DNA of 64,000 nt. Origin: an uncultured virus (IMG/VR IMGVR_UViG_3300020213_000033) (taxonomy: Duplodnaviria > Heunggongvirae > Uroviricota > Caudoviricetes). The notes beneath the pieces were generated by a model. It was given only the letters and a program-made list of their open reading frames with translations, made no database searches and was not told where the DNA came from. This document shows, piece after piece, positions 31,129-51,662 of the stretch (within the stretch, counting starts at the first letter, position 1; every line of letters begins with the position of its first letter). The translations under genes were made by a program, and so were the position numbers. The stretch lies in the IMG/VR virus record IMGVR_UViG_3300020213_000033; one strand, given 5' to 3'.

Positions 31129-32385
31129 CTAGCTCTGGATCCGCACGGCGAGTTCGGGGCGCACTGCGGCCCAGCCGTACAGGATGTCGAGACGCGCCGG
31201 GGACTGGTCGGTCATGACGTCGTACGCCTTGATGAAGCGGACGCTCATGGCGATGGCCGCGTTGCTGATGCGCTTGCTCACCCACACCCCCTGCGGCAGG
31301 GGGAGGTCCGCCATCACGCACGTGAAGGCGTTCGGGTCATACACCAGGCCGGTGCGCGTGACCTTGTTCGCGTGCGTCGAGGCGTGGCCGAAGATCGTGA
31401 TGATCGCGTTGTCCGCCGGGCGACCCGTGGCGGTCGAGTAGGCGTTGCTCGCGCCATAGACCAGCGGGGGCGAGAACGGGATCGTCGCGTTGCCGCTGCC
31501 GTCGGAGAAGACGTCGGCGCTCACCACGTAGTCCTTGAGCCGCCCGGTGGACTGGTACGACATCGGGTTGATGTCGAAGACGCCGTCGAACTGGATGACG
31601 TCGCCTTCGTTCAGGCGCTTGGCCGCGGCGGCGGTCCAGCCGTCCGTGACGAGCGACGTCACGCCGGAGGCGGCGCCGGCCGCGCCCGCCGCCACGTTGA
31701 CCAAGGGGGTCCCGCCGAGTGGGCCGACCACGTGCGTCGGCGCGTTCTCGTCGATGTACCACTCCTTGATGCCCAGCACTTCGCCGGCAATCTTGCCGGT
31801 GCGGTACTGCTTGGAGATCACGGCGCCGGGATTGAACAACGCCAGATTGGCGTTCGCCAGCGACGCGTGCATCTGCGCGGTGAGAATCGCCACGAGACGG
31901 CCGGTCGGGACCGAGCCTTCCGTGAGCTTCACGGTCGCATCGAGGTAGGACGCGTTGGTCGTGGGGACCACGGCAGGCGTGCCCACCGTGCGGAACACGC
32001 GCTTGTACATCCGCTGCAGCCCGTCGAGGTCCATCTGATTGCCGAGTGCTTCCACGGCCGGGTCGATGTAGCGTTCGGTGTAGTTGTCCACTTCCATCCG
32101 GAGGCTGGCCGAGCTGAACTCGATGCCGACGTTCGCCTGATCGGTGAGGGTGATCGGGACCACTTCTTCGTTGGCGCTGACGGGGTTGAGCGCCTGGCCT
32201 TTGTTGACCATGTAACGCTGCGGCAGACGCGCGTTCACGGTATAGCCCACCTTGGCGCCGGAGATCGTGTACTGGCTGTCGTAGCCCCGCGTCACGTTGG
32301 CGGCAAAGCGGAGCGTGTTGGTGAGACGCTGCGTGACTTTCTTGATGACCCAGGACGGCGTCACCAGGCTGTTCGATACGGACAT
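31129..32385 (-). CDS. Major capsid protein, P22 coat family
   Basis: KVGYTVNARLPQRY; ERYIDPAVEALGNQMD; RLDILYGWAAVRPELAVRI. Confidence 0.95.
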   Translation of the reverse strand: MSVSNSLVTPSWVIKKVTQRLTNTLRFAANVTRGYDSQYTISGAKVGYTVNARLPQRYMVNKGQALNPVSANEEVVPITLTDQANVGIEFSSASLRMEVDNYTERYIDPAVEALGNQMDLDGLQRMYKRVFRTVGTPAVVPTTNASYLDATVKLTEGSVPTGRLVAILTAQMHASLANANLALFNPGAVISKQYRTGKIAGEVLGIKEWYIDENAPTHVVGPLGGTPLVNVAAGAAGAASGVTSLVTDGWTAAAAKRLNEGDVIQFDGVFDINPMSYQSTGRLKDYVVSADVFSDGSGNATIPFSPPLVYGASNAYSTATGRPADNAIITIFGHASTHANKVTRTGLVYDPNAFTCVMADLPLPQGVWVSKRISNAAIAMSVRFIKAYDVMTDQSPARLDILYGWAAVRPELAVRIQS

Positions 32386-33727: not shown

Positions 33728-33758
33728 ACTCTACACGTCAAACGGTTGGCGCTGTCAA
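33728..33758 (-). promoter_or_regulatory. Candidate sigma70 promoter for scaffold/coat
   Basis: TTGACA-19nt-TAGAGT (long spacer). Confidence 0.35.
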
Positions 33759-36523
33759 CTTTTTGCCGCTTTCGGCTTCGTCGCGCGCGCCTCCCGGCCA
33801 GTGGCCGCCTCGGCGATCTGGGCCTGTCGGCGGTCGGTGGCTGCCGCGAGGGCGCCTTTCCGCGCGTCGGCGCGCTCGGCCTGCACGTCCTGTCGCACGC
33901 CGTCGCGGCTCGCGCGCTGCTCGTCGCCCTCGCGCTGCTCGCGGGCAAGGGCGCGCTGCCGACTCGCCGCGCTGCCGGCCATCAATTCCTTTCGCACGTC
34001 GCCGCGCACCGCGCGCGTCTCGTCGCGGTCGCCGGCACGGGCGGCACGCTGGTCCTGGTCCTCGGAGAGCTGCGCTTCGAGGGACGCCTCGAGCCGGGCC
34101 ATGAGGACGTCGTGCGCCTGCTGCGACTCGCCCATCGCGGCGTCGATCTCGCCCTGCAGCGTGGCGACGTCCACCTTGCCGCCGCCGTTCATCTGCGCGA
34201 TGGCCAGTTGCGTGCGCGTCGTGGCGAGCACGGTGCGCTCGCGGGAGGCGTTGGATTCCTGCGCGATCATCAGTTGCGTCTGGTACTGGCTGCGCCGGGT
34301 CTGAATCTCGGTCGTGGCCTCCTGCAGTTGCTGCTGCATCTGCTGCAGCTGCATGGTGAGACCCTGGATCTTCGCCATCGCCTCCGGCGACATGTCCGAG
34401 TCGTCGTCCTCGTCGCCCGGCAGGTTGGCGATTGCGGGCTGCACCGCCTTGATGCGGGCCGACAGTTGCTCCGCGATGTCGCCTTCCATCTGCGAGGCGA
34501 GCAGGTCGGCCATGAGCGGCGCGAGGGCGGGGGCGGCTTCCATGATGGCGCGGATCGATTCGCTGTTCTGGTCCTTCGCGCTCTGCGTGCTTGGCCCGAC
34601 GCCCACGGCGATGGTGTAATCGGCGTCGGCGTCGAAGGTGTAGAGTTTCGTGCGCTGCGGCTTCGCCATCCCCGGCATCTGCACCGACTGGCCGACCATG
34701 CCCTCCGGCGGCATGCCTGGGGGGACCGGCACGGCTTGCGGCCCGTCCGGGGTCTGCACGAAGGGGGCGCCGACGATCGCGTACTCCTCCTGGTCGCGCT
34801 CACCGAGCAAGCGCATGACGCGGCCGGGGCGGTCGTAGATGTGGGGCAGGAGGTCCACGATGATGCGCGCTTCGTAGGCCATCGAGATTTCGGCCAGGTT
34901 CGTGAGGAAATGCGAGCTGCCGACCTGGGCCTGCTGCTGGAGCGACTGCACCGCCTTGCCGCTGCGCTCGCTCGAGTATTGGCCGAGGGACGCTTCGTGC
35001 CGGCCGGTGATGTCCTTGATGTCCTGGTCGGCGGCTTGCGCGGCGATCGTGATCGCCTGGATCGCCGGCTCAGACGTGTTGCGCTGCGGCGGGGGCATGA
35101 GATGGCCGTCGTGGCTCGTCGGCTTGTAGACCAGGACCGAGTGATTCTCGGAGTTCGCCGTGTCCCACTCCGGATAGAGCTCGGTCTGGCCCTCGGCGGC
35201 GATGTAGGGCGCGCGGGGGGCGAGCGCCACGGCTTCGACCTGGGCCGAGCGGTGATACTCGTAGGACCGATTCGCGTCCTTGCCCACGGTGTAGATGCCT
35301 TTGAAGGTCCGCTCGCCGTTGACGTTGTGCTCCTCGCCGACGACTTCCACGATCGGGATGAAGCGGCCGGGCCACTGCTCCTCGTCGAGGATTTCTTCGC
35401 CGTTAAGGACTTCCCATCGCACCACCGGCGTGACGATCTCGCGCTTCAACACGTCCGGCGGTAACTGCACGGTCGGCGGGATCTCGTCGGCCCACATCTC
35501 CTGATGGCCCTGCCCGGTCGGCACCCACAGCTTGGTGCGGCGCTCGTACTCGACGTAGAAGTGCTCGGCGACGCGGATCGTGGCCTCGGTAATCCAGCCG
35601 GGCGGCGTGTCGCCGGTCCCTGTAAGCGCGCCGCCCTCGTGCTGCGCGTCGGTCCCGTCTTCCACTACCGACCCGGCCAGAATCTCGCCGTAGGTCTGCT
35701 CCTCGAGCGCCTTGCGGATCTTCTTGGCCAGCTTGCTGTCCGGGTAGCGGTCTGGATAGTCCCGCGTCGGGATGTCCTCGGTGATGAGGCAGAATTTCAT
35801 GTCCGAGCCGTCCGGCTCCTTGCGCCAGGGGTCCGGGTAGACCGCGAATTGGTTCAGGATGCGACTGACGACGATGTCGAGGTCGCGATCCTTGTCGTTG
35901 GCGTACTTCGTTTCGATGCGGTAGTAGCCGCGGCCACAGGTGATCACGCGGTCGAGGGCCCAGTTGCGCGCGATGTGCGCGCGGCTGTCGACTTCAATGG
36001 CCCGCACCGCGTCCTGCACCAGTTGGGCGTTCTTCTTCGTCGCCCGGCCCGCCTTCGCCTTGATGCGGATACTGAGGCGCGCGTTGCGGGCCTCGTTCAT
36101 CGTCTGCCGCTTCGGTACGGCCAGCTTGTCGAGCACCAGCATGGGGCGCCCGTACCCCGGCTTGCCGGACTCGCCATTCGTCTCGCCGCTGCGCCGCGTG
36201 ATGTCGCCAGCCGTCCAGTGGTCCTCGAGGCGGGCGCGCGCGTACTTCAGGTCGTCGAGTTCGGCGCGGCGTTGGTCTTCGTCGGCGCTGCTCGAGGTCT
36301 TGAAGTTGCGGATAGCGCGGGCGTGCCGCTTGCGGAGGGCGTCGGCGCGGGCGATCTCGTCGGGCGTGACGGGGGTCGCGTCTGGGTCGCCGCCGGCTTC
36401 CACGATCGCGTCGTAGTCGCCTCTGCCGCGGCTGACCATGTCCACGCCGTAGGCGTTGTTGGTGCCCTCAACCGGATCGATGCGGGGGAGCGACGGGGGC
36501 CGGCGCCCTGGAGTGGTGGCCAT
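33755..36523 (-). CDS. Portal protein, P22-like
   Basis: CGRGYYRI; VYPDPWRKEPDGSDMKFCLI; WPGRFIPIVEVVG; long helical C-terminal barrel. Confidence 0.93.
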   Translation of the reverse strand: MATTPGRRPPSLPRIDPVEGTNNAYGVDMVSRGRGDYDAIVEAGGDPDATPVTPDEIARADALRKRHARAIRNFKTSSSADEDQRRAELDDLKYARARLEDHWTAGDITRRSGETNGESGKPGYGRPMLVLDKLAVPKRQTMNEARNARLSIRIKAKAGRATKKNAQLVQDAVRAIEVDSRAHIARNWALDRVITCGRGYYRIETKYANDKDRDLDIVVSRILNQFAVYPDPWRKEPDGSDMKFCLITEDIPTRDYPDRYPDSKLAKKIRKALEEQTYGEILAGSVVEDGTDAQHEGGALTGTGDTPPGWITEATIRVAEHFYVEYERRTKLWVPTGQGHQEMWADEIPPTVQLPPDVLKREIVTPVVRWEVLNGEEILDEEQWPGRFIPIVEVVGEEHNVNGERTFKGIYTVGKDANRSYEYHRSAQVEAVALAPRAPYIAAEGQTELYPEWDTANSENHSVLVYKPTSHDGHLMPPPQRNTSEPAIQAITIAAQAADQDIKDITGRHEASLGQYSSERSGKAVQSLQQQAQVGSSHFLTNLAEISMAYEARIIVDLLPHIYDRPGRVMRLLGERDQEEYAIVGAPFVQTPDGPQAVPVPPGMPPEGMVGQSVQMPGMAKPQRTKLYTFDADADYTIAVGVGPSTQSAKDQNSESIRAIMEAAPALAPLMADLLASQMEGDIAEQLSARIKAVQPAIANLPGDEDDDSDMSPEAMAKIQGLTMQLQQMQQQLQEATTEIQTRRSQYQTQLMIAQESNASRERTVLATTRTQLAIAQMNGGGKVDVATLQGEIDAAMGESQQAHDVLMARLEASLEAQLSEDQDQRAARAGDRDETRAVRGDVRKELMAGSAASRQRALAREQREGDEQRASRDGVRQDVQAERADARKGALAAATDRRQAQIAEAATGREARATKPKAAKS

Positions 36524-36984
36524 CAGTCGATCCCCTTGTCGTGGCCGTCAGCGATGGCCTCGTCCAGCCACTGCTGCGGGGACTTGTCGCCGTACTGCTG
36601 GCGGATCGCGTCCGGGTGGCTCGCCTCTTCGATGACCCACGACTTGTCGATCTCGGCCTGCGTGGGCGGGGTCACGGGCTCCACCTGGTCGAGGAACGCG
36701 CCAGCCAGGTGCATGGCCTCCGCGTGATCCTGGTCGAGCGTGAACCGCGCCTGCACCGCGCCGCAGAAAAACAGATAGGCCCTGTCGCAGATTTCGTCCG
36801 GCAGGTCCATGACTGGTGCGAACGCTTCCCGCATCGTTGCCCGCCACACCTTCTCACCCTGGGCGACGACTTCGCAGAGGATCAGGTCGTCGGCGCAGAT
36901 ACCCTCGATGACTCGCCGGATCTGCAGCTTCGCGATCTGCTGCGGCGAATACTCGCTCTCGATGCGCTTGAAGGGGCGGCTCAT
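36523..36984 (-). CDS. Hypothetical protein
   Basis: TGATG overlaps at both ends. Confidence 0.7.
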   Translation of the reverse strand: MSRPFKRIESEYSPQQIAKLQIRRVIEGICADDLILCEVVAQGEKVWRATMREAFAPVMDLPDEICDRAYLFFCGAVQARFTLDQDHAEAMHLAGAFLDQVEPVTPPTQAEIDKSWVIEEASHPDAIRQQYGDKSPQQWLDEAIADGHDKGID

Positions 36985-37229
36985 CAGTCGCGTAGCCGCA
37001 CCGCGAACTCGGGCTGCATCTTGGCCCAGCCGTACAGGACGTCGACACGCGCGGCGTGCCGGTCGGTCACGACGTCATACGCCTTGAGGAACCGCACGGA
37101 AAAGGCGAGCGGCTCGAAGACGAGCGGCGGCGGGGCGACGGGGATCTGGACGGTGGCCACGCCGAGGACGGCCAGTCCGAGTGCCGCGATGAAGTGCCGC
37201 CGCTTGATGCCGTTCTCGAGTGGGGCCAT
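36984..37229 (-). CDS. 81-aa twin-arginine-leader protein fused to a copy of the capsid C-terminus
   Basis: KRRHFIAALGLAVLGVA; SVRFLKAYDVVTDRHAARVDVLYGWAKMQPEFAVRL matches coat C-terminus; GAGG RBS. Confidence 0.75.
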   Translation of the reverse strand: MAPLENGIKRRHFIAALGLAVLGVATVQIPVAPPPLVFEPLAFSVRFLKAYDVVTDRHAARVDVLYGWAKMQPEFAVRLRD

Positions 37230-37247
37230 GCTTGCCTCGGTGGACGT

Positions 37248-37322
37248 TGGTTGCAGGAGCGGGAATTGAACCCGCGGCTTCCAGGTTATGAGCCTGGCGC
37301 TCTGCCACTGAGCTACCCTGCG
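37248..37322 (-). tRNA. tRNA with CAU anticodon (Met/fMet-like), encoded CCA
   Basis: CGCAGGGTAGCTCAGTGGCAGAGCGCCAGGCT-CAT-AACCTGGAAGCCGCGGGTTCAATTCCCGCTCCTGCAACCA folds as a cloverleaf. Confidence 0.95.
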
Positions 37323-37487
37323 ACCCAGAGCATACACGAAACCGTCAGCGCGTTGACGCTTTCCGTGGTGGCGTCGGCTTCTGCGGGGGCGGCGGCGGCA
37401 AGGCGAGCGCGTCTCGAACCCACTCCCGGTTCAGCGCGCATAGGTGGCAGGCCGGATTCCCGCAGTCGCGGACGGCGCAGCACGGCA

Positions 37488-37727
37488 TCAGCGGCGGCTA
37501 TCGCTGGTGACGACGCTGGTGACGACGAACGTGCCTGCGTATCCGGAGAGGGTGATCACCTCCCCTGGGCGGAGACGCCGTAATCGAGGCCACTCGGCGT
37601 GCTGCGGGCGCACGATGTCGAAGTAGCTCCGCTGGCCCGGTATCCACAGGGCGCGCTCTGGGTCGAACACGGCGCCGGCGACGGCGGCGGTCGTCGCGGC
37701 AAGGAAGCGGCGGCGCGTGAGAGTCAT
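37488..37727 (-). CDS. 79-aa twin-arginine-leader protein
   Basis: [25 protein letters not shown] coupling to upstream gene. Confidence 0.7.
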   Translation of the reverse strand: MTLTRRRFLAATTAAVAGAVFDPERALWIPGQRSYFDIVRPQHAEWPRLRRLRPGEVITLSGYAGTFVVTSVVTSDSRR

Positions 37728-38308
37728 CACCAGCCCCACATCACCGGCGGCTCGAGCGTGCCGAACACGACGTGCGTGAGGCGCGCGCCATCGCCCTCCC
37801 CGTGGTTCTCCTCGAGGCTCCGCGAATGGAACAGGTCCGACTTGAACAGCACCAGCCGGTTGAACTTGGCCGAGACGCGGACCCACGGCTTCCACAGCCG
37901 GCGGTTCCGCATGCCCGTGAGATTCCAATCGCCATCGATCGCGCCAGAGTGCCGGTGGCGCCAGAACGTGGTGCCGTCGCCCGCGACGTCCACCGGGGTC
38001 ATGTAGTAGATGGCCGTCATGTCGCCCATCATCGCGTCGGAGTGGATGAAGTTCGGTTCGACTTGGCCGCGGGGGCTCTGCCTGGTGAACGAGAGCGTGG
38101 GCGTGAAGCTGGGCACCAGCGCATCGAGCGCCGCGAGGAGGTCGATGGTCGCCTGCTCCGCGATGCCGTGGAAGGTGTCGTCGCCGAACGTGACCGAACG
38201 CCGGGGCATCGCCAGCGCCGCGGCGCGTACGGCGTGCGGGTTCGGCAAGACGTCGTCGAAGATCTGGATGATCTGCATCGCGGGGGCGGTGGTTGGTGCG
38301 GCGCCCAT
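37727..38308 (-). CDS. 2OG-Fe(II) oxygenase-like protein (DUF6445-like)
   Basis: IFDDVLPNP; FIHSD (HxD); GTTFW; KFNRLVLFKSDLFHSR. Confidence 0.75.
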   Translation of the reverse strand: MGAAPTTAPAMQIIQIFDDVLPNPHAVRAAALAMPRRSVTFGDDTFHGIAEQATIDLLAALDALVPSFTPTLSFTRQSPRGQVEPNFIHSDAMMGDMTAIYYMTPVDVAGDGTTFWRHRHSGAIDGDWNLTGMRNRRLWKPWVRVSAKFNRLVLFKSDLFHSRSLEENHGEGDGARLTHVVFGTLEPPVMWGW

Positions 38309-38568
38309 CACGTCAGCCAGTTGTCGAGCGGGACGCGCTCCACCGTCGCCGCGTCGACGCGCACGGCCGCCACGCTCGCGGCCTCGGCGGTCAGGTGGGC
38401 ACTGACGAGCGTGTGCTGGTCCATCACGACCCAGATGCCGCACTCCGGGGTGAGGTCACGGCGCACTGCGCGCGAGACGATCGCCGCGATCCCGATGCGC
38501 TCGGCCGCCGCCCGCGCGACGAGCGCCGACCACAGGTCAGACGGGATGCCACGCCAGGTGAACGTCAT
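38308..38568 (-). CDS. Small protein, possible ribbon-helix-helix
   Basis: FTWRGIPSDLWSALVARAAAERIGIAAIV; coupled overlaps. Confidence 0.5.
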   Translation of the reverse strand: MTFTWRGIPSDLWSALVARAAAERIGIAAIVSRAVRRDLTPECGIWVVMDQHTLVSAHLTAEAASVAAVRVDAATVERVPLDNWLT

Positions 38569-38813
38569 CGACGGCGCCTCCGCCTGCGGGACTGCGCGCG
38601 TCCCGCCTGGGCCAGCGCGCCCGAGCGGGCGGCCTTCTCCATGACGCCGGCGGCGGTGCGTGGCGGGTGGATGCGATCGAAGAATACCTCCCGGCAGGTC
38701 TGGCACCAGATCAGGACGACCGCATCGTCCTCGTGGGCCACCGCGGTGGTATGCGAGGGGTGGTGCCACGCGTGGGCGAGCCTCTTCAGGGTGGCGACGA
38801 CTCGTGCGGTCAC
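38565..38813 (-). CDS. Small hypothetical protein (CxxC)
   Basis: ATGA overlap with downstream gene. Confidence 0.5.
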   Translation of the reverse strand: MTARVVATLKRLAHAWHHPSHTTAVAHEDDAVVLIWCQTCREVFFDRIHPPRTAAGVMEKAARSGALAQAGRAQSRRRRRRR

Positions 38814-38823
38814 TGGTCTGCTC

Positions 38824-39006
38824 CTACTCGTCGACGCGCGACGTCTGGGCCGTGTTCTTGAAGCTCCCGCGCTGGTCGAGCTGCTTGATGCGCGCCGAGA
38901 GCTCGTTGACCGCGGCCGGCGTGCCGGTCACGAGGCTGTCTTCGGGGACTCCGGCCCAGATCGCCTCGGCCATCGAGCGGTAGATGTCGCCGTTTCTGGT
39001 GTCCAT
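38824..39006 (-). CDS. Small hypothetical protein
   Basis: AGGAG RBS before ATG 39006. Confidence 0.6.
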   Translation of the reverse strand: MDTRNGDIYRSMAEAIWAGVPEDSLVTGTPAAVNELSARIKQLDQRGSFKNTAQTSRVDE

Positions 39007-39018
39007 GTTGTTCTGCTC

Positions 39019-40473
39019 CTAGCTGCCCATCCACGATCCGCCGCCGGCCTGGCGCCCGCGGTTGAACGCGACGCGCCGCTGCTGGGCCTTGGTCGTCACC
39101 GGCCGCGCGCGCTTGATGCCGGAGTATATCGCGTAGCGGGTGGCGTCCATGCAGTGGTCGTTCTTTTTCACGATGCGGCCCTTCGCGTCGCGCTGATACA
39201 TGCGCCACTCGTCCCACCACTCGGTGCAGCTCGCGAAGACCTTGAGGCGGCCATCCGAGAAGAGCTGCCAGACCGACGCGATGCCCGCTTCGACGCTTTT
39301 GTCGGCCAGCTCGAGGTCGAGGCCGCCACGCTGGTAGACGCGGATCAGCTGTTCGGCGTCGCCGGCCGTCACGATGAGCGCCGCCGCATCGCCAGACCCG
39401 GGGATGCCCTCGCCGCGAGCGCGGATCGCGGAGAGATGCACGGCGGGCTCGGGGCTCTCACGCTTGTAGCTGTCGGTCACGATGACGCGGCCCCCGGCGG
39501 ACGGTTCGATCGCGAGCCAGACCGCGGCTGTCGCCTTCGCGCCGCCGCCCACGTCCAGGCCGAAGCACTTGTTCCAGTGGGGCGGGATCTCGAAGTTGGG
39601 GACGCGCAGCTCTGATTCGGGGAAGGCCCACACGGCGCCGGAGCCCAGTTGGGGGATGCCCTGGCTGCGCGCGTCACGCTGGAACGGTGGCGTCGTGGCG
39701 AGGAGTTCAGCCTTTTCGGCCTCGCCGAGGTGCGGGACGTGGTCCCACCCGGCGGTGGTCAGATGGAGATACTGCGCGGCCTCGGGCGACGGCGAGACGA
39801 ACATCGAGACGACGTCCGACATGCCCTGGAGCGGCGTGAAGGTCGTGATCATCAGGCCCGACGTGGTCATGGTACGCACGACGGCCTCGGCGTAGCAGTC
39901 GAGCGGAGGTTCTTCGTCGAACCACACGATGTGCTGCTCGGTGCCCTCGAAGCTTTTACTTCCCTGCTCGTAGGACTTGAACTGGATGATGCTCGTGCCG
40001 CCGTCGTTGTGCCGCACCCACACCGTGTCGAGCGCGCCGGGGTTGTGCGGCTTGCGGGTGGCGTGAATCACCCGGTCGAGCGGGATCATCCCGCCCCCGG
40101 AGAGGGTGCCATCCTCGCCTACCGCGCCGACGAGCGCCTTCTGCAAGATGTTTTTGGTGGTTCCCGTGTCCTTGCCCGCGGCCCAGACGTCGATTCGGTG
40201 CGGGAAGACGCGGCCCGTCCACCAGTCCGGGTACTCGCCAGTGGCGTGCGCGGCAACCTCGTAGGCGCCTGAGCGGGTCTTCCCAACCCGGTTCGCGGCC
40301 ATGAACAGCCGCTGCCGGTGTTGCGCGCCCGCCTTGAAGTGGTCCATGTGCCGCGGGTACAGCTCGCGGCGGACGGGGCCCGACTCCGGGAAGTAGGTGT
40401 ACAGCTCGCAGCCCTCGAGCGCCACGAGCCGCGCGGTGGCGGCATGGAGACGCTGGACGGCTTCGATGGTCAT
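39019..40473 (-). CDS. Terminase large subunit
   Basis: AANRVGKT Walker A; VWFDEEPP; TFTPLQG; GLDVG; DHCMDATRY. Confidence 0.95.
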   Translation of the reverse strand: MTIEAVQRLHAATARLVALEGCELYTYFPESGPVRRELYPRHMDHFKAGAQHRQRLFMAANRVGKTRSGAYEVAAHATGEYPDWWTGRVFPHRIDVWAAGKDTGTTKNILQKALVGAVGEDGTLSGGGMIPLDRVIHATRKPHNPGALDTVWVRHNDGGTSIIQFKSYEQGSKSFEGTEQHIVWFDEEPPLDCYAEAVVRTMTTSGLMITTFTPLQGMSDVVSMFVSPSPEAAQYLHLTTAGWDHVPHLGEAEKAELLATTPPFQRDARSQGIPQLGSGAVWAFPESELRVPNFEIPPHWNKCFGLDVGGGAKATAAVWLAIEPSAGGRVIVTDSYKRESPEPAVHLSAIRARGEGIPGSGDAAALIVTAGDAEQLIRVYQRGGLDLELADKSVEAGIASVWQLFSDGRLKVFASCTEWWDEWRMYQRDAKGRIVKKNDHCMDATRYAIYSGIKRARPVTTKAQQRRVAFNRGRQAGGGSWMGS

Positions 40474-41075
40474 CGCGCCGTCAGGTCGGGGAGGATGATG
40501 ACCGCGCTGGGGGTCGGGAGGTCGTGGTGGTCGAGCACGACCGCCAGCGCGGAGCGTGGGAACAGCCGGCGGAAGTCGGGGGCCATGACCATCTGCGCCG
40601 CGTTCGTGGCGGCCAACCGGACGGCCTCGCTGCCCATGTACCGCGGCTGCTCGGGCGTCCCCTTGTCCTCGGCCTCCGGCGTCCAGACCCAGGTGCCGGG
40701 CACGCCAGGCGTCTGTGACGGGTGTCCAGACGGTGGGGAGGGGGCATTTTCCTTAGCCTTTTCTTCGGCGTGCAACAAGTCGATGCTCATGGCGAGCTCT
40801 TCCGCCAGGCGTCGGGCCTGGTAATGGTCGAGGGCCGAGAGCTGAACGATAAAGCGCCGCACTAGTTCCGCCGTGCGATACCGAATCGTGTCTCGTGCGT
40901 TCATGGTCTGCTCCTGACGAGTGGAAGTCCCTAGCCGTGGGCGCCTCTGCCACGGGATGGCCGACGGTCTGCGGCATTGCGTGCCGCTTGGCGCGTAGCG
41001 TGTCGTCACCCCGCACGTCAACGCGCCCTCGAGGGCGAGCCGGGCGATGGCGACGGCGGTGTAGTCAGCGGACAT
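40470..41075 (-). CDS. Hypothetical protein (alternative start 40904)
   Basis: AGGAG RBS before both ATG 41075 and ATG 40904. Confidence 0.55.
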   Translation of the reverse strand: MSADYTAVAIARLALEGALTCGVTTRYAPSGTQCRRPSAIPWQRRPRLGTSTRQEQTMNARDTIRYRTAELVRRFIVQLSALDHYQARRLAEELAMSIDLLHAEEKAKENAPSPPSGHPSQTPGVPGTWVWTPEAEDKGTPEQPRYMGSEAVRLAATNAAQMVMAPDFRRLFPRSALAVVLDHHDLPTPSAVIILPDLTAR

Positions 41076-41270
41076 CGCCTGCTCCTAGCGAGTGAAAAGG
41101 CCCGGCCGTGGCTGGCACCGGCGCTTGGCTGGCACGACCACGGACGGGCAAACATCCGACGGCTCGTGCGAGCGAGCCACCGGAGAGGGCCAGTATGCCC
41201 CGCTTCGGTGGAAAAGCGTTACGGGTGGGCACGCGGGGCTGCGGAGGGCCCTGCCGGCGCGGCGCCATCG

Positions 41271-41825
41271 TCATTCGGTCGTCCATGGCGTCTGGCTCTG
41301 TCGCTTCAGGCCGCGTGGGAACGTGAGCGTGGGGCTGGTGAAGCTCTTCTCCTCGAACACCGTGTGGTTGGTGGGCTGGATCGTGAGCCAGCCGCTATCG
41401 AGCTGCACGAACGTGAATTCCTTGGCCTGGTCTGGCGAGGCGCTGTAGCCGTCTCCGACTGGGGCCACGGTGAAGAGGTAGGTGCCGAGGTGGTCGTGGC
41501 GGTGCGCGCGCACAAGGCACCGGAGCCCGGCGAGATACGCGTATTCGAGGGCGGTGAAGTCGGTGCCGTAGCAATCCCACGTCTGCGCGTCTTGAGGCGT
41601 CCACAGCCCGGTCGGCGCAGGGTCGAACGCCAGCGCGTGCGGCGGGAGATTGCGGTAGATCGCGCCGGACTCCAGCAGCACCGTGCAGCCCCACATCCGG
41701 CCCGGATGACTGACCAGGCCAAACCACACCGCGGGCACGAATCCGACCGGCTCTCGGTGCGTGTGCGCCGTGTCCACCCAGCAATAGAGATGGCGAGGTA
41801 ACTCGCCGTTCAGCGTGTAGCGCAT
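41271..41825 (-). CDS. Phage hypothetical protein
   Basis: Globular-looking 184-aa ORF (LLESGAIYRNLPPHAL, WDCYG, YLFTV, IQPTN). Confidence 0.7.
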   Translation of the reverse strand: MRYTLNGELPRHLYCWVDTAHTHREPVGFVPAVWFGLVSHPGRMWGCTVLLESGAIYRNLPPHALAFDPAPTGLWTPQDAQTWDCYGTDFTALEYAYLAGLRCLVRAHRHDHLGTYLFTVAPVGDGYSASPDQAKEFTFVQLDSGWLTIQPTNHTVFEEKSFTSPTLTFPRGLKRQSQTPWTTE

Positions 41826-42278
41826 GGCCGGGACTCTACCTGAAGGGCGAGGCGCGGCGCCAGTGAGGAAGGCGTGCCGTTTCTGGCCACTTCCCTTTTT
41901 GCCCACTCTTTTGAGTGTGTGATTCAAGCAGTCCACGTAGGCGAATCGTGGTATCGAGCCGGATTGCTTGACTGTTTAAGCTCGCACGCGGCGCCATTGC
42001 TGCACCTGCACCACCTGCGCCACCTGCAGCTTCGGCCGCCGTGGCTTGGCGAGCCGCGCTGCCGGAGCCCAGGGGCCGACATGCTGCTGTCCTGAGAGCT
42101 GCCGAGCGCGAAGCTCGAGCGCTTGCGTGCTGGCCTCTTTCGTGAGCCTCACACGTCTGGCGAGTAGTTCGGCGTTGAGTTGGGCGTCGGTCATGGGATG
42201 GCACGTGGTGATTTCATTGGGGTTTCCTGAGATGTCGCACGGCTCTGCACTTTTCTTTCGGTCTCGTGTCGATTGCTG

Positions 42279-42308
42279 TTGACACGCGCTGAGCGCGTAG
42301 CATATCCT
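42279..42308 (+). promoter_or_regulatory. sigma70-like promoter with palindromic operator
   Basis: TTGACA-18nt-TATCCT; perfect inverted repeat ACGCGCT-G-AGCGCGT at 42284..42298. Confidence 0.6.
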
Positions 42309-42372
42309 CCCTCTATCGACGGTCGCTTGTGACTGTTCGACGCCGGCCCGCGAGGGCAGAGAGCAGGATGAC

Positions 42373-42591
42373 ATGAGCAGCATGAGAACGAATCTAACAG
42401 CAGGCACCCGCGTCACCCTCGCACTCGACGGGGAGACGTTCGAGGCGGTTGTTGAGTCGACGGCCGTTCGCTACTCTCGCCATCTTGGCGCAGATGTTAC
42501 CTTCGTCACGTTCCATGAAGCGGGCGATGTCACGGCCGGCCTCACCTTCACCCTCGACGAATTCACAGACGCGATCCACGCGGCCGGCTAG
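42373..42591 (+). CDS. Small hypothetical protein (plus-strand operon gene 1)
   Basis: 72 aa, beta-rich, downstream of promoter. Confidence 0.65.
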   Translation: MSSMRTNLTAGTRVTLALDGETFEAVVESTAVRYSRHLGADVTFVTFHEAGDVTAGLTFTLDEFTDAIHAAG

Positions 42592-42661
42592 TCGAGTCTC
42601 CGCTCTGCCCAGGGCGCGGTCCTGGGCAGCGACGGATACTCGACCTTCAGGAGCACAGACC

Positions 42662-42997
42662 ATGACCATCTACACCATCACCGCCGCCCGCGTTGACCTC
42701 ATCCCAGCCGACCTCCTGGTCCCAGTGCTGGGGCTCGACCTCGCCAGCCTGTCGCACGACGGCGGCGCCGACGCGTCGCACACCGAGACGTATCTCGATG
42801 CCGCCGGACAGTCGTGGGATCTCCCGGTCTACGGGCTCGTCGTCGGGACACGCATCCTGATGTGGAGCCGCACTGACGAGGCTGGCGTCGATGACGTCAC
42901 GGTCCAAGACGTCACTGAGGCCACAGACGACGTGCATGACTACGCGGTGGCGCTGGCCGCTGGGCTCGACGCGGCCCCCTGGCCGGAGTCCCACTAG
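42662..42997 (+). CDS. Acidic hypothetical protein (plus-strand operon gene 2)
   Basis: AGGAG RBS before ATG 42662. Confidence 0.7.
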   Translation: MTIYTITAARVDLIPADLLVPVLGLDLASLSHDGGADASHTETYLDAAGQSWDLPVYGLVVGTRILMWSRTDEAGVDDVTVQDVTEATDDVHDYAVALAAGLDAAPWPESH

Positions 42998-43240
42998 ATG
43001 CCGACCCTGCACCTCACTGGACTCACCCCTGATCTCGTCTCCCGTGTCCGCGCCTACGCGCGAGCGCGGGACCTGTCCACCGCGGCCGGCGCCGCCCATC
43101 TGCTCTCTGTAGGCCTCCAGTCGGTCGCAGCGCGCACCGCAGGAGCCACGGCCCTGAATGCCAGCCGCACGCCCGAGGAACGCTCTGCCGCGGCCCGGAA
43201 GGCGGTCCTGGCCCGCTATGGACGCACCGCGCCCGTCTGA
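42998..43240 (+). CDS. Putative RHH DNA-binding protein
   Basis: MPTLHLTGLTPDLVSRVRAYARARDLS; C-terminal RTPEERSAAARKAVLARY. Confidence 0.65.
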   Translation: MPTLHLTGLTPDLVSRVRAYARARDLSTAAGAAHLLSVGLQSVAARTAGATALNASRTPEERSAAARKAVLARYGRTAPV

Positions 43241-43263: not shown

Positions 43264-43611
43264 TCATGGCGTCGGCGTAGCCTTCGGTGTGATCGTCGGC
43301 TGTGGGAAGAGCCCACCACAGAATGGGCAGTCGATCGCGCCCCGCTCAGCGCGTAGGATCTGCGCCACGGCGTCGTCGGCACTCGTGGGTCTCCTGAGTT
43401 TCGGCCTCACGCCTTGCAGAAATGCACACGCCACAATTCCATCGGCCCAATCCTCCACATCAGGGAGGGGCTCGGCCCGCCCCGCGTCCACGTCGAGGGG
43501 CACGGCAGTGGTGAGTGCGGCGATGGCTACGGTCAGCGCCTCGCGGAGCGTCAAGTAGTACTCATCGGGCCAGTTGCCCTTGATTGCGGCGATGGCTTGC
43601 TCTGGGGTCAT
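43264..43611 (-). CDS. Hypothetical protein
   Basis: ATGA-coupled; C-terminal CPFC. Confidence 0.65.
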   Translation of the reverse strand: MTPEQAIAAIKGNWPDEYYLTLREALTVAIAALTTAVPLDVDAGRAEPLPDVEDWADGIVACAFLQGVRPKLRRPTSADDAVAQILRAERGAIDCPFCGGLFPQPTITPKATPTP

Positions 43612-43808
43612 GACGTGGCCTTTGGTGTGTAGCCCAGCCGGCAGCCGTCATCGGGAGTGACGTGCGAATCTACCGCGATGGACTGGCTATTGCGGCACAG
43701 GCCGCGAGAGGATGGCCCGAGCTTCTCGAAGTGCGCGCACGTCCCGCAGGTGCCGGCGCTCAGCGCGTCGTCGAGTGCGCGTAGGATGTCGCCTGTGATA
43801 GTCGTCAT
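43608..43808 (-). CDS. Small 4-Cys protein
   Basis: CGTCAHF...CRN...DDGC. Confidence 0.6.
   Translation of the reverse strand: MTTITGDILRALDDALSAGTCGTCAHFEKLGPSSRGLCRNSQSIAVDSHVTPDDGCRLGYTPKATS
43627..43790. repeat. 164-bp perfect direct repeat, copy 1
   Basis: Identical to 44189..44352 by base-by-base comparison. Confidence 0.97.
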
Positions 43809-44173
43809 GGCTTCTTGGTCCAGGTGAACTGCACGCCTACCTGTTGCATGCCGGCGTTGAGCGCGGCGACGCGGGCGGTGTCGTCGACGTGACCGATGTA
43901 AGGCTTGTCATTGATGCTGTAGTGGTCCAGCAGGCCACCCTTGTGGATTCCCATCACACGGCGGAGCCGGGGGGTTAACACCTGGGGGGCAAGATCCGCA
44001 AGTATATACTTCTCTTCTATGTCCGCATCCGTCAGTCCCTCCGCCCGACAGAGCAGCCCGATGCAGCACATCTTGCCTTCCGGGGTGCGGAGTTGGTAAA
44101 GATCACGCTTCCCTCGATGCCAGACGTCATCGGGGAGATCTACCACGAGGGGGGCGAGAGGGGGGTTGGTCAT
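43805..44173 (-). CDS. Hypothetical protein between direct repeats
   Basis: GKMCCIGLLC...IND motif; ATGA overlaps. Confidence 0.7.
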   Translation of the reverse strand: MTNPPLAPLVVDLPDDVWHRGKRDLYQLRTPEGKMCCIGLLCRAEGLTDADIEEKYILADLAPQVLTPRLRRVMGIHKGGLLDHYSINDKPYIGHVDDTARVAALNAGMQQVGVQFTWTKKP

Positions 44174-44460
44174 GGTGTCTCCTTCGCCGTGTAGCCCAGC
44201 CGGCAGCCGTCATCGGGAGTGACGTGCGAATCTACCGCGATGGACTGGCTATTGCGGCACAGGCCGCGAGAGGATGGCCCGAGCTTCTCGAAGTGCGCGC
44301 ACGTCCCGCAGGTGCCGGCGCTCAGCGCGTCGTCGAGTGCGCGTAGGATGTCACTCGCGCGAGCGTTCGCTAACAGTCTCGCATTGGGCTCCCATTTCGC
44401 CACGCTGTCGCGTAGGTAGCGCAGCACCACGTGTGGAGAGGCGTCATCGGGGGTCGTCAT
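44170..44460 (-). CDS. 4-Cys protein sharing its C-terminal half with 43608..43808
   Basis: GAGGAG RBS; identical 54-codon segment. Confidence 0.65.
   Translation of the reverse strand: MTTPDDASPHVVLRYLRDSVAKWEPNARLLANARASDILRALDDALSAGTCGTCAHFEKLGPSSRGLCRNSQSIAVDSHVTPDDGCRLGYTAKETP
44189..44352. repeat. 164-bp perfect direct repeat, copy 2
   Basis: Identical to 43627..43790. Confidence 0.97.
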
Positions 44461-46044: not shown

Positions 46045-46313
46045 TTTTTCGCCTCCTCTAGTAACTCCTGGTGGTTGGCGTGTGCCCGCACCGCCTCGTC
46101 GATCGCCAGCCGTGCATCAGCGATGGCCTTGGCGAACAGCATCGGAAGGTGCCCGGCGCAGCCCGCGCTCTCTAGGCATTTATTCGCCCTATCGAGTGCC
46201 CTTGCCACCGCGTGGCCCTCCGCCGTGGCGAGCGCCCCGCGCGCAGCTTCCACTGACATCGTGCCGGTGAAGATCGCTGATATGGTGCCGGCGTCGATGG
46301 AGTTATCTGGCAT
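46041..46313 (-). CDS. Hypothetical protein
   Basis: GAGGAG RBS before ATG 46313. Confidence 0.6.
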   Translation of the reverse strand: MPDNSIDAGTISAIFTGTMSVEAARGALATAEGHAVARALDRANKCLESAGCAGHLPMLFAKAIADARLAIDEAVRAHANHQELLEEAKK

Positions 46314-46905
46314 CGTCGTCTCCTCGGAACGTGTCCAACCGGTTGAGGCGCATTGCGTTCTTGCGCTCCGCCTTCTCGAGCGCCGCACGGGTCTTCCAGC
46401 TCCAGAGAACGTGCCGCGGATTACCCATCAGGATGCCCGGCTGTGGCCGGTAGATGCTGATGGCTGAGGCATACATCGCGCCGGCCTTCGTGATCCCATC
46501 GGCCCGCAGGTAGGGCACCCGGTGGGGCATCTCGCGGATCTCGACCGCGTGCCGCGTGTAGCGCCACCAGCCCACGCTGCTGTCGTGCGGGTGCAGCGCG
46601 ACAATGGTCATGTCCTGACCGTGCTGCGCCACCGCCGCCATGAAGCGCAGAATCAGATCCGAGCTGTAGGGCATGTTCAGGAACCCCACGCGGCCGTGGT
46701 CCGCCCAGCGCGCCGCCAGGGCGTCCTCCGCACGCCCACCAGGGCCGAGCCAGCGCCGGCACAGTGCATTGGTCGCGTCCGCGGCAAGGTCGAGGTCGAA
46801 GCTGAACTCGGCATCGAGCGCGGCGAAGAGCGGCAAGGGGGTGCGCCAGCTGTCCGATGCGCGGACCTCGCCGGGCGCGAGCTTGGTGCGCTTGATCTGC
46901 TTCAT
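46303..46905 (-). CDS. Phage Dam-type DNA N6-adenine methyltransferase (variant motif NMPY)
   Basis: DSWRTPLPLFAALDAEFSFDLDLAADATNA; DALAARW; FLNMPYS. Confidence 0.85.
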   Translation of the reverse strand: MKQIKRTKLAPGEVRASDSWRTPLPLFAALDAEFSFDLDLAADATNALCRRWLGPGGRAEDALAARWADHGRVGFLNMPYSSDLILRFMAAVAQHGQDMTIVALHPHDSSVGWWRYTRHAVEIREMPHRVPYLRADGITKAGAMYASAISIYRPQPGILMGNPRHVLWSWKTRAALEKAERKNAMRLNRLDTFRGDDDAR

Positions 46906-47348
46906 TTCATCGTCCTCTTCGGTTGCGGCGCGAGCCCGCCCTGTACGTGCTGCACGGCCGCTTGGATCTCCAACGCCCACCTTCCCATCCTGAGGCTGAA
47001 AACCGACAAGTGGCGCAGCACCAGAGCCGCGTCGTCGAGATCCGTGGCGTCCGTCGGCATCGCGCAGTCCCAGGCAACGAACGCGAGGAAGTCGGCCAGC
47101 TCGACGATGGTGTCGAGCGGGTGGCCCACGATCATGGTGTTGACCTGCTCGCGCAGCGCGATGCTGGCCAGACACGCCGGGCACGTCGTGGGCGTATGCA
47201 CGCCGTCCTCGAGTGCGTGCTGGTAGCCGCCGCCGTCCGCGAGTGCGTGCTGGTAGCCGCCTTGCGGGTCGTTGGGCGGCGGCATGACGGCCGTGCGCGG
47301 CTTCGGGGCCGCGGGGGCCTTCTTCTTCGGGCGCGTGGGTGTGGTCAT
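46902..47348 (-). CDS. Hypothetical protein
   Basis: Contains tandem GGYQHALxDG; CPAC. Confidence 0.6.
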   Translation of the reverse strand: MTTPTRPKKKAPAAPKPRTAVMPPPNDPQGGYQHALADGGGYQHALEDGVHTPTTCPACLASIALREQVNTMIVGHPLDTIVELADFLAFVAWDCAMPTDATDLDDAALVLRHLSVFSLRMGRWALEIQAAVQHVQGGLAPQPKRTMK

Positions 47349-47349
47349 G

Positions 47350-47544
47350 TCACCGTTCCTGTTCGGGGTCGATCGGCAGTTCGGCGGGGGTGGTCGGGTC
47401 GGGCAGAACCATCGGCCAGATCCCTTCCAGTAGGGCGAGCGCGACCAGCAGCAGCAGGATGATGACCCAATCCCGTGCGGTGAGGCCGAGGAACATCCGC
47501 CGCCACGGGCGCGGGCGGACGTCGAGCTTGTTCGCGTCGCTCAT
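47350..47544 (-). CDS. Small membrane protein
   Basis: WVIILLLLVALALLEGIW. Confidence 0.6.
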   Translation of the reverse strand: MSDANKLDVRPRPWRRMFLGLTARDWVIILLLLVALALLEGIWPMVLPDPTTPAELPIDPEQER

Positions 47545-47792
47545 GGCCTCGGCAACGCTTGGACGTAGAGCACGTCTTTCTCTGCCCTGCACACGGCTAC
47601 TCTCGCGCGTAAGCCCTTCGCATTCGCCCGTTTGCGTATATAGCCAGTCGCGGAGACCATCGTCGATTGGAAATCAACGCCGTTCTGGAGGCGCCAGATG
47701 CGACCGTCGAGAAACCGATCAGGCCATGGCGGAATACCGCTCGGACCCGGTCGCCCTGCCGTCGACGGGAACGCGTCGATCACGTCAGCCAT
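47541..47792 (-). CDS. Small putative DNA-binding protein
   Basis: PWPDRFLDGRIWRLQNGVDF...VLYVQA. Confidence 0.6.
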   Translation of the reverse strand: MADVIDAFPSTAGRPGPSGIPPWPDRFLDGRIWRLQNGVDFQSTMVSATGYIRKRANAKGLRARVAVCRAEKDVLYVQALPRP

Positions 47793-47793
47793 T

Positions 47794-48219
47794 TCAGGGC
47801 GCCCCCAGATACGTCCACGTCGATTCGTGCTCCAGCGCCATCAGCGCCAGCGCGGCCACCGCGCACAACAGCAGCACCGTTGCCTGCACGGGCACGAGAT
47901 CGACCACCCACTGGGCGTCGATGTCGCGCGCGGGGCTGGCGGTGAACTGCACCGTGTCTTCCGCGTCCTCAGTGGCCGCGTCCCTCGAATCGAATGGGCC
48001 GGTCGGATACTTGCCGGCGACGGCCCAGAACCAGCGCGCGTCGTCCATCTCGAAGACGTCGAGCTGGTCGCGCCGATACCGGGTGGCGTGGATGGCCGTC
48101 ATGCCGCCCGGTTCGCCGCAGCGGGGGCACGTCGGCCCCTCGCTGGTGGTCTGGCAGTCGGCCGTGGGCGCGCGGTGGCCGCATTCGTGACAGACAAGAT
48201 CGCGGTTCAGTGTATGCAT
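47794..48219 (-). CDS. Zn-ribbon protein with C-terminal TM
   Basis: CHECG...CPRCG; AGGAG RBS. Confidence 0.6.
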   Translation of the reverse strand: MHTLNRDLVCHECGHRAPTADCQTTSEGPTCPRCGEPGGMTAIHATRYRRDQLDVFEMDDARWFWAVAGKYPTGPFDSRDAATEDAEDTVQFTASPARDIDAQWVVDLVPVQATVLLLCAVAALALMALEHESTWTYLGAP

Positions 48220-48271
48220 CGGGGCTGCTCCTACCCTATGCGGCCGGCGTGAGTGCCGGACCTCGACGCCG

Positions 48272-48300
48272 ATCCTACTGCCGATTTATCGTTCTGTCAA
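48272..48300 (-). promoter_or_regulatory. Near-consensus sigma70 promoter
   Basis: TTGACA-17nt-TAGGAT. Confidence 0.65.
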
Positions 48301-48538
48301 ATCGGGGGCTGCGTGTCGGCGCGCTTGGCCGCCGCCGTAGCCAGTACTTCCACTTGAAGGCGGCCCTGGTCCAGCGTGTGCCGCGCCGCGCCGCCTTCTG
48401 CTGGATGCGATGCTGCCGGGCGCTCAGGCCCAAGCGACGACGCGTCATGCGCGCCGAGTCCGGCGAGCATCGGTAGGTTCGGCCACCGTCTGATTGCCGT
48501 AGCCAGTACTTCCGGTCCGGCGTCGGGTTGTCGAACAT
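48275..48538 (-). CDS. Small basic hypothetical protein
   Basis: TGATG overlap with upstream gene. Confidence 0.45.
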   Translation of the reverse strand: MFDNPTPDRKYWLRQSDGGRTYRCSPDSARMTRRRLGLSARQHRIQQKAARRGTRWTRAAFKWKYWLRRRPSAPTRSPRFDRTINRQ

Positions 48539-49119
48539 CAGGGCCGCCAGAGCGCCACGCTCACCTTGTCGCCGCGCTGCACGCTGTAGCCAGGGATGGT
48601 GAGGGTCGCCGCGCCGAAGTAGAACGGCTGCAAGATCCCGTCGATGACGCTTGTGGCCACGTCGACGTCGCCGAGCCGATACCGATCGGTCACGGTGGCG
48701 TCGAAGGCCACCGCCGGAGGCGGGAGCCGCAGGCGCGGGTCCGCCGGCACGGTCGGCAGGAGCAGGTTGAAAATGGCCGGTGCCGAGCAGTCACCGTTGC
48801 CGTCACACGCCACCATCGCGTAGGCGTTCTGCGCCTGCCGAGACACGATCACGCCGCTGGCGGTGCCGAGTAGCTCGCAGTCCATCGCCGCGTTGCGCGG
48901 GTCTTCAATCCGCAGGCCCGGCGAGCTCGACACGCCGCCCCTGGCCAAGCCGCACGACATGCTCGACGCCAGGAACGTGCTCGTCGACACGGGAAGCGGT
49001 AGTGTGCGCGTCAGTCGATACGACGTGGGGAGCGGCACGCCGGGCAGCGGCTGCGCCTGCGCGGGGCGCGCCGCGAAGAGTACGAGACAGACGATCGCGA
49101 TGATGGCGAGGATTCTCAT
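48538..49119 (-). CDS. Signal-peptide protein, distant paralog of 241..684
   Basis: MRILAIIAIVCLVLFAARPAQAQ; shared YRL...TF.AS...CG.AR...R..DP...A.DC...P...RLR pattern. Confidence 0.75.
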   Translation of the reverse strand: MRILAIIAIVCLVLFAARPAQAQPLPGVPLPTSYRLTRTLPLPVSTSTFLASSMSCGLARGGVSSSPGLRIEDPRNAAMDCELLGTASGVIVSRQAQNAYAMVACDGNGDCSAPAIFNLLLPTVPADPRLRLPPPAVAFDATVTDRYRLGDVDVATSVIDGILQPFYFGAATLTIPGYSVQRGDKVSVALWRP

Positions 49120-49257
49120 GATGCTGTTCCTTTTCTTGTGAGGTGTCGTTGTGTCCGCTCTAGCCGGTGCCGCCGCTGCGCGCACCAGATGCACATCTTC
49201 AAGCGCCTTGAGCATAGCCTGACCGGGCGGTCACAGCCGGCGATGCGGCACGCGCGT

Positions 49258-49437
49258 CTAGCCCTCGGCAATGGCAATTGCGGCCGCGAGGAGGTCAACC
49301 TTGTCCCACAGTTTTTCGATGACGCGCTCCAGGCGCTTTACTCGCGAGAGCAACGCGCTGTCCCGGGTGCGGCCCGCCGTGACGTTGCGGAGGGTGGCGT
49401 CGGTCGGGTTGCGCTTCTTCGTGGTGGTCTTGGCCAT
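49258..49437 (-). CDS. Small coiled-coil protein (59 aa)
   Basis: MAKTTTKKRNPTDATLRNV...RVKRLERVIEKL; purine-rich RBS. Confidence 0.55.
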   Translation of the reverse strand: MAKTTTKKRNPTDATLRNVTAGRTRDSALLSRVKRLERVIEKLWDKVDLLAAAIAIAEG

Positions 49438-49485
49438 GTTGTTGTCCCTTTCCTATGTCGCGCCGTGCTGACGAACGATCCTTGC

Positions 49486-51149: not shown

Positions 51150-51155
51150 GATGGC

Positions 51156-51629: not shown

Positions 51630-51662
51630 GACGACTCGTTCCTTGGGTTGGGGTGGACGGGG

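Follow-up and report, generated by a model that had tools for sequence, protein, structure and literature searches.

The locus

The window analysed here is a 64,000-nucleotide stretch of DNA from an uncultured tailed virus (IMG/VR record IMGVR_UViG_3300020213_000033). The virus is a P22-like podovirus, and P0001 belongs to its late head operon, where it is encoded between the genes for the large terminase (TerL) and the portal and ahead of those for scaffold and coat (Table 1). It is joined to its neighbours by TGATG overlaps, its ATG sharing bases with the stop of the oxygenase-like gene upstream and its stop with the ATG of the Cys-rich ORF downstream. GC3 is 0.84, compared to 0.85-0.93 in long genes nearby. 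The reading frame is open, the coupling exact and GC3 high in every copy of P0001 seen. The ORF is a real, stop/start-coupled gene.

The initial annotation gave the sequence and coordinates of P0001 correctly, as it did the two stretches quoted from P0001 and from coat. It had also described P0001 and a second twin-arginine gene, P0002, as flanking a tRNA between TerL and portal. This arrangement is true, and the oxygenase-like gene, the Cys-rich ORF and others also lie between TerL and portal.

Table 1 Features of P0001, its neighbourhood and the coat gene (positions in the window).
Feature	Position	Strand	Description
Large terminase (TerL)	39019..40473	minus	
2OG-Fe(II) oxygenase-like gene (DUF6445)	37727..38308	minus	Upstream slot edge
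P0001	37488..37727	minus	79 aa; Tat-type leader, DPERxLWxPG module and coat insertion-domain fragment
Tat-type leader	37665..37727	minus	P0001 residues 1-21; T-R-R-R-F-L, then 14 Ala-rich residues F8-F21
Family-defining motif	37620..37664	minus	P0001 residues 22-36, DPERALWIPGQRSYF
Cargo	37497..37583	minus	P0001 residues 49-77; two segments homologous by sequence to coat insertion-domain strands, hairpin between omitted
47-aa Cys-rich ORF	37345..37488	minus	TGATG-coupled to P0001 stop; downstream slot edge
tRNA, CAT anticodon	37248..37322	minus	The window's only tRNA, flanked by P0001 and P0002; Met by ARAGORN
P0002	36984..37229	minus	Companion twin-arginine gene without DPER; coat C-terminus (BLASTP E 4e-17, 25/40 identical)
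P22-like portal	33755..36523	minus	
Major coat protein	31129..32385	minus	P22/Sf6/CUS-3 type; PF11651 E 3.9e-26, phrog_283, fold TM 0.76 to Sf6
Coat segment 1	31582..31623	minus	Coat residues 255-268; model strands 255-258, 263-266
Coat segment 2	31498..31533	minus	Coat residues 285-296; model strands 286-288, 292-294

The leader and the DPERxLWxPG module

The Tat-like leader proposed from the sequence is recognised by TIGR01409 at 22.2 bits (cut-off 16.7); the Pfam model PF10518 gives 13.1, below its cut-off of 22.7. An SRRxFLK-like paired-arginine motif is present as T-R-R-R-F-L-A at residues 4-10, and the arginines of this motif are given as near-invariant in Tat signals (PMC7317946). Tat signals have a moderately hydrophobic, helical h-region of at least 12 residues (12 in the same source); that of P0001 has 14 (F8-F21) and is helical in the model. 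The model (pTM 0.34) places a helix at 5-21 and a short helix at 23-26, an arrangement parallel to that of the MdoD signal in its complex with TatBC, which has helices 2-20 and 22-26 (PMC13323110). A-G-A at residues 17-19 is a candidate AxA signal-peptidase site; the loose [AVG]x[AG] pattern, found in 129 of 141 distinct locus copies of the family, is expected of any Ala-rich helix. A complex prediction of residues 1-45 with TatC from a bin titled Acidobacteriota scored 0.00, with controls that did not fold, and counts neither for nor against such docking.

Across the family, RR is found in 135 of the 141 copies and KR, RK or KK in none. Phenylalanine stands two places after RR in 125/135 leaders, and the F-to-D spacing is only 10-11 residues in 33/135. 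The DPERxLWxPG motif is near-invariant among the 141 copies, which were partly collected by the motif itself, and is also near-invariant in phmmer matches collected without a motif filter. Leader and motif together form a module that is conserved far better than any cargo. Like known Tat signal peptides (TIGR01409, PF10518), the P0001 leader has RRxFL, an Ala/Gly-rich helix and a helix break 17 residues after the arginines. Unlike them, leaders of this kind have a very short n-region and often a short h-region, followed by the invariant DPERxLWxPG, and are phage-encoded without a folded, cofactor-bearing passenger.

L054:752-1234 and L059:5079-5732 (+) hold a DPERxLW module without a nearby RR leader, which suggests that module and signal are separable. 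In each of four public DNA runs (X2, X6, X7 and X8) there is a further contig that agrees with the leader-coding DNA from 37672 onward and then runs into unrelated sequence; this is perhaps another leader-bearing gene, or a chance match of GC-rich DNA.

The cargo and the coat insertion domain

The model of the window's coat protein folds like the coat of Sf6, CUS-3 and P22 (TM about 0.7-0.76). Positions 233-338 of the coat profile match two isolated small PDB chains, 6MPO and 6MNT, which were taken as insertion (I-) domains from their length and position. The coat stretch matched by P0001 is the I-domain, in agreement with the initial annotation. In P22 this domain spans residues 222-345 and is a non-conserved addition to coat (PMC9965877). 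P0001 residues 49-77 align to coat 255-268 and 285-296 with 13-16 residues skipped, such that strands 255-266 and 286-294 are copied and the hairpin at 270-283 is absent. By position, the missing hairpin is probably the S-loop (P22 277-292 in PMC9965877).

Direct comparison of P0001 with coat is not significant, neither by BLASTP (E 0.065 over 13 residues) nor by a HMMER model of the whole coat built from 120 coat homologs, which scores the leader-less tail at -2.0 bits, as high as which came 172 of 2000 shuffles. When the HMMs were restricted post hoc to the insertion domain, between 1 and 6 of 3000 shuffles reached the score of the tail. Profile comparison by hhalign recovered, with a 13-residue gap, the same alignment of P0001 C-terminus and coat stretch that had been noticed by inspection: the leader-less tail matches the coat profile at 52.6% probability (E 1.4e-4), and the tail of the allele P0004 at 88.4% (E 2.8e-6), with 0/200 shuffles reaching the score in either case. 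Further evidence comes through the relatives. Twenty-four tails chosen by coat score align to coat at 99.0% (E 2e-18) and the P0001 tail aligns to them at 94.7%; against the bridge profile, 0/3000 shuffles reach the P0001 tail. This bridge is partly circular because its tails were found with P0001. The profile-profile comparison with the P22 coat family that the initial annotation had suggested gave 96.3% (E 1.9e-9, coat 248-325) for P0001 and 50 relatives, picked by eye for a GD..I motif from 149 matches. Long insertion-domain cargos make up 24/141 tails found with P0001 and 1/76 of those found with a leader-only query (Fisher p 2e-4), the two samples being drawn from different collections and the second consisting of the best 80 of 127 matches. 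Just 5/76 cargos in the leader-only sample reach 5 bits on the coat model.

These comparisons identify the P0001 cargo as homologous to the I-domain at the level of sequence. The known I-domain (PF11651; PDB 6MPO, 6MNT, 5L35) is a six-stranded barrel, and residues 49-77 are homologous to two of its strand segments; P0001 differs in having about 29 of some 120 residues, no intervening hairpin and no barrel, its model showing two 2-residue strands only. At 79 residues it is not a full HK97-fold subunit. Since only two strand segments are present and the model holds no barrel, the cargo is a degenerate peptide fragment, not a domain. The description of P0001 as a capsid-like fragment therefore stands as regards homology to coat, but the piece is too short for a folded capsid domain. 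P0001 is neither a coat protein nor an I-domain and at most works like a piece of one. No capsid match was found in Pfam or PHROGs (neither PF11651 nor phrog_283), and a fold search with the P0001 model gave no match at E<=0.001.

The cargo does not appear to be a recent copy. Fresh copying from the present coat is unsupported by DNA identity (22/45 and 20/36), and in a tree whose rows were chosen by a cargo-built profile, 31 long I-domain cargos and 28 coats fall on separate sides (98/71, unstarred, 106 columns, long branches). Given this separation, the cargos cannot be recent copies tracking the present coat and look, from these sequences, more like an old, fast-evolving lineage. A profile of short-form cargos did not list the window coat and a profile of long-form cargos found it at 43 bits. 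No better source for the short cargo within its own genome was found among 603 window ORFs.

A family of Tat-like leaders with virion fragments

A search of 1.84 billion representatives puts the family of P0001 at no fewer than 205 clusters (E<=1e-3). Among the 150 matches listed, almost every one aligns through residues about 3-45, and the common part is RRxFL, the Ala-rich stretch and DPERxLWxPG. One of the 150 is the allele and three unrelated repetitive proteins (P0023, P0073, P0146) were dropped; tails could be cut from 141, leaving out three proteins without the motif pattern and two with tails under 15 residues. Among these tails, 37/141 score at least 5 bits on the coat model, as do 0/2900 shuffled and 0/145 reversed tails. 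They fall on the insertion domain (27, from tails not selected for coat likeness), the N-terminal region (8), the P-domain (1) and the C-terminus (1). In PHROGs (E<0.01), 14 of the 150 proteins match phrog_283 (major head) and two match terminase families; on visual inspection, further tails are reminiscent of tail-tube, decoration and portal motifs.

Most locus cargos (120/142) match no long ORF in the fetched loci, and 22/142 match one at E<0.01, against 0 when reversed. The phage's own capsid is matched in six cases, ranking first in four and third in two. In 24/47 loci the nearest large genes include TerL, portal or scaffold. Two or three genes of the family occur together in 20/178 loci, a total that includes some contigs fetched twice. 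The cleanest test case is L060:1469-2527 (+), where three overlapping genes with DPER leaders follow in a row and carry the coat N-arm, the insertion domain and the C-terminus. Twin-arginine ORFs without DPER lie next to genes of the family, and 12/31 in the fetched loci reach at least 7 bits on coat, mostly on the C-terminal strand as in P0002; ten of the 12 lie outside the phage group of the window, the other two being P0002 and its variant in the relative L004. Thus the design of leader plus fragment is not tied to one leader.

P0001 is a worn member of this family. A word-index protein search with it matched solely the allele P0004, and a search with P0113 matched one relative, so few that no independent bridge can be built that way. 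ESM Atlas matches to P0001 were all under 0.9 and serve as leads only; P0113 had none there. As to hosts, 5/12 genome-collection loci lie in bins titled Acidobacteriota and 4/5 of those bins hold TatC; this is a hint at hosts, no more, as the contigs are possibly misbinned phage DNA.

Taken with its operon setting, the data make it highly probable that P0001 is an intact accessory gene, optional in its phages and from a family widespread among phages, which joins a twin-arginine leader and DPERxLWxPG to a shortened, diverged piece of a P22-type coat insertion domain.

Exchange of genes between TerL and portal

Three close relatives of the window (L001-L003, 98-99% identical) carry the allele P0004 and precisely lack P0002. 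A fourth (L004, 96% identical) carries a variant of P0002 and lacks P0001. In this phage a 194-aa twin-arginine gene without DPER (L004:552-1136, +) fills the exact P0001 slot, between the same TGATG and the same downstream ORF. The replacement gene has no match in PHROGs, NCBIfam or PADLOC. A weak likeness to the C-terminal strand of coat was not counted, as it reaches 28% (E 6e-4) with a C-terminal piece chosen post hoc and 6.5% with the whole tail. Among public DNA runs, contigs of X2 and X8 carry the P0004 allele without P0002, X6 has the window allele with P0002, and X7 has the window allele, its contigs occurring both with and without P0002. The P0001 locus is an exchangeable slot of the late head operon.

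Co-occurrence of P0001 and P0002 in related phages had been proposed as a check. Clusters of twin-arginine genes with different coat pieces do recur, as in L060, but the pair is not obligate. Obligate pairing was rejected, since near-identical phages lack one or the other.

Selection on leader and cargo

The window and P0004 alleles of P0001 show no difference in the first 53 codons; between them there are four non-synonymous and no synonymous changes, all in codons 54-77. Over the same comparison TerL has 20 synonymous and no non-synonymous changes. The alleles give no sign of purifying selection on the cargo, and four changes are too few to separate relaxed from diversifying selection. At the level of the family, seven independent close pairs give a dN/dS of 0.28 for cargo and 0.30 for leader, where choosing pairs at 60% or more cargo identity biases the ratio down. 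The one long insertion-domain pair has 22 synonymous and eight non-synonymous differences. Judged by these ratios, the family cargos show purifying selection.

These data bear on whether the cargo matters at all. One alternative is that the leader and DPERxLWxPG are the working part, for example as a competitive blocker or hijacker of the Tat translocase or as a membrane-active peptide, and that the tail is a tolerated passenger from nearby late genes, decaying in the case of P0001. The far better conservation of the module, the confinement of allele differences to codons after the first 53, the many unrecognised cargos and the very short members P0048 (46 aa) and P0132 (33 aa), which may be cut, would all fit. 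It is nonetheless rather unlikely: purifying selection on cargos is about equal to that on leaders, leaders without DPER carry coat pieces too, a small set of coat segments turns up again and again across many lineages, and one active peptide would need no two or three paralogues with different coat pieces, as found in L060.

That P0001 is a functionless by-product, with a tail that resembles coat by chance or is a drifting relic of a partial duplication, seems very improbable. The 4:0 excess of non-synonymous changes is compatible with neutrality, the BLAST and whole-coat HMM values are not significant, and the GD..I.G / FVV pattern is short and occurs also in the tail family phrog_1302. Against this stand the hhalign result, unmatched by any shuffle for both alleles, the bridge comparison (partly circular), the enrichment of insertion-domain cargos in tails found with P0001, the open frame, exact coupling and high GC3 of all copies seen, and selection at the family level.

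Possible function

We tentatively propose, at somewhat short of an even chance, that P0001 is targeted to Tat and serves as bait, by which a host factor that binds capsid is drawn to the membrane. P0001 would be made together with terminase, portal and coat through translational coupling, and its leader would dock on the host TatBC receptor. The capsid-derived peptide would bait a host factor that recognises capsid, which might be an immune sensor, an anti-capsid protease or an assembly inhibitor. The bait would hold this factor at the membrane or carry it out of the cytoplasm, allowing the real coat protein to escape, and phages would vary their bait set by gain, loss and swap of these genes. 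Tat can export partner proteins that have no signal of their own. Among the known triggers of immunity are capsid, portal, terminase and tail proteins (PMC11364771, PMC13728456).

The points in favour of a bait can be summarised as (i) the non-random coat cargo; (ii) its self type; (iii) conservation of the leader; (iv) selection at the family level; (v) the late-operon context; (vi) swapping. Other data argue against it. Avs sensors are reported to bind folded cores, such as the capsid A-domain, over large surfaces and to leave variable extensions unbound (bioRxiv 10.64898/2026.01.04.697583), whereas P0001 keeps only two short segments of an I-domain that is itself a non-conserved addition (PMC9965877). 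The P0001 alleles differ 4:0, most cargos are unrecognised, few of the leader-only sample score on the coat model, the insertion-domain cargos do not track the present coat, a quarter of leaders are short, and most unfolded proteins are not carried by Tat (PMC7317946).

A broader form of the proposal is that such genes make up a swappable repertoire of 'export-and-remove' decoys, in which Tat-led virion copies capture capsid-, portal- and terminase-sensing immune proteins and host Tat tethers or exports the complex. We regard this as unlikely. If true, the copied segments (N-arm, insertion domain, C-terminal strand and Walker A) would be an epitope map read by the sensors of uncultured bacteria, the coat insertion domain would be a so far unrecognised immune trigger, and export-and-remove decoys would constitute a relocalisation-based counter-defence.

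The cargo might instead bind virion proteins, either tethering the phage's own procapsid or folding coat to the membrane or poisoning assembly in related phages that co-infect the cell, much as the assembly blockers Tai and Tab do. The cargos do come from the phage's own capsid type and the genes sit in the head operon, N-arm and C-terminal cargos have the length needed for pairing with coat, and phage-borne assembly blockers exist (PMC11364771). However, the coat sequence in P0001 amounts to no more than two discontinuous core segments, phages that are 96-99% identical do without one gene or the other, and late coupled expression would strike the phage's own capsid first. Integrase (PF00589) is absent in 4/4 partial relative records (three distinct) and has no PHROGs match among 37 further window ORFs, hence there is no sign of a lysogen in which an assembly blocker would serve. 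This explanation is quite unlikely.

The peptide could also act after export, in the periplasm or at the surface, through superinfection exclusion or as bait for envelope defences against incoming particles. A Tat signal implies an envelope destination, and one antiphage system has been published that works in the periplasm by blocking DNA entry (PMC13128918). A consensus scan of 36000-43000 found no promoter-like site on the coding strand, which together with the tight late coupling argues against early or lysogenic expression, and N-arm and terminase cargos are not parts of the outer surface. Action of this kind is very unlikely.

The proposed bait has partial parallels among known systems. 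Anti-defence mimics and decoys, such as Ocr-type DNA mimics and antitoxin mimics, are likewise small optional phage genes, for which occupation of a host defence factor is also proposed. DSAD1 competes with the tail tube at DSR2. P0001 differs from such mimics in that it joins an export leader to a sequence copied from the trigger protein itself, and in that its decoy role is predicted. P0001 has no PADLOC match. Tai/Tab blockers and moron-type late-operon genes resemble it as small, variable hotspot genes concerned with virion proteins. In contrast, as treated in PMC11364771, they protect lysogens or satellites against other phages, and the passages on them describe no Tat leader or capsid-derived sequence. 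No description of an export leader joined to a fragment of the phage's own virion was found in the full text of open-access papers and bioRxiv. The main text of the EVADES preprint, on 268 anti-defence proteins, has neither 'capsid' nor 'signal peptide', and the searched text of a 2026 review of counter-defence (PMC13728456) has no whole-word 'Tat'. The architecture of export leader plus virion fragment is apparently undescribed. What P0001 itself adds is the insertion-domain class of cargo, together with a slot whose content is exchanged exactly between near-identical phages. Should the fragments be decoys, they would indicate the parts of virion proteins sensed by bacteria; if the leader is the active part, the family would be a phage-made modulator of Tat.

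Neighbouring genes and other features of the window

The 47-aa ORF has five to six cysteines and its frame is kept open in L001 and L004; it is possibly a small metal-binding protein. The oxygenase-like gene, labelled 'minor coat protein' by PHROGs (phrog_1644), has 17 non-synonymous and seven synonymous changes between the window and L004. A 60-aa ORF directly behind TerL (38824-39006, minus) is cleanly absent from L001-L003 and run X2 and is a second presence/absence gene in the TerL-portal hotspot.

Further upstream, the sole sigma-70-like promoter in 36000-43000 lies in the region 42279-42666 (+) and faces against the direction of the operon. The stretch behind it, 42310-42666, is in opposite orientation in L001 and L002, and 43606-43790 and 44168-44352 form a 185-bp direct repeat (96%); the region is possibly a rearranging early region. 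Elsewhere the window encodes a 4484-aa DarB-like antirestriction protein (8928-22382, minus) and at least three DNA methyltransferase genes at 46303-53116.
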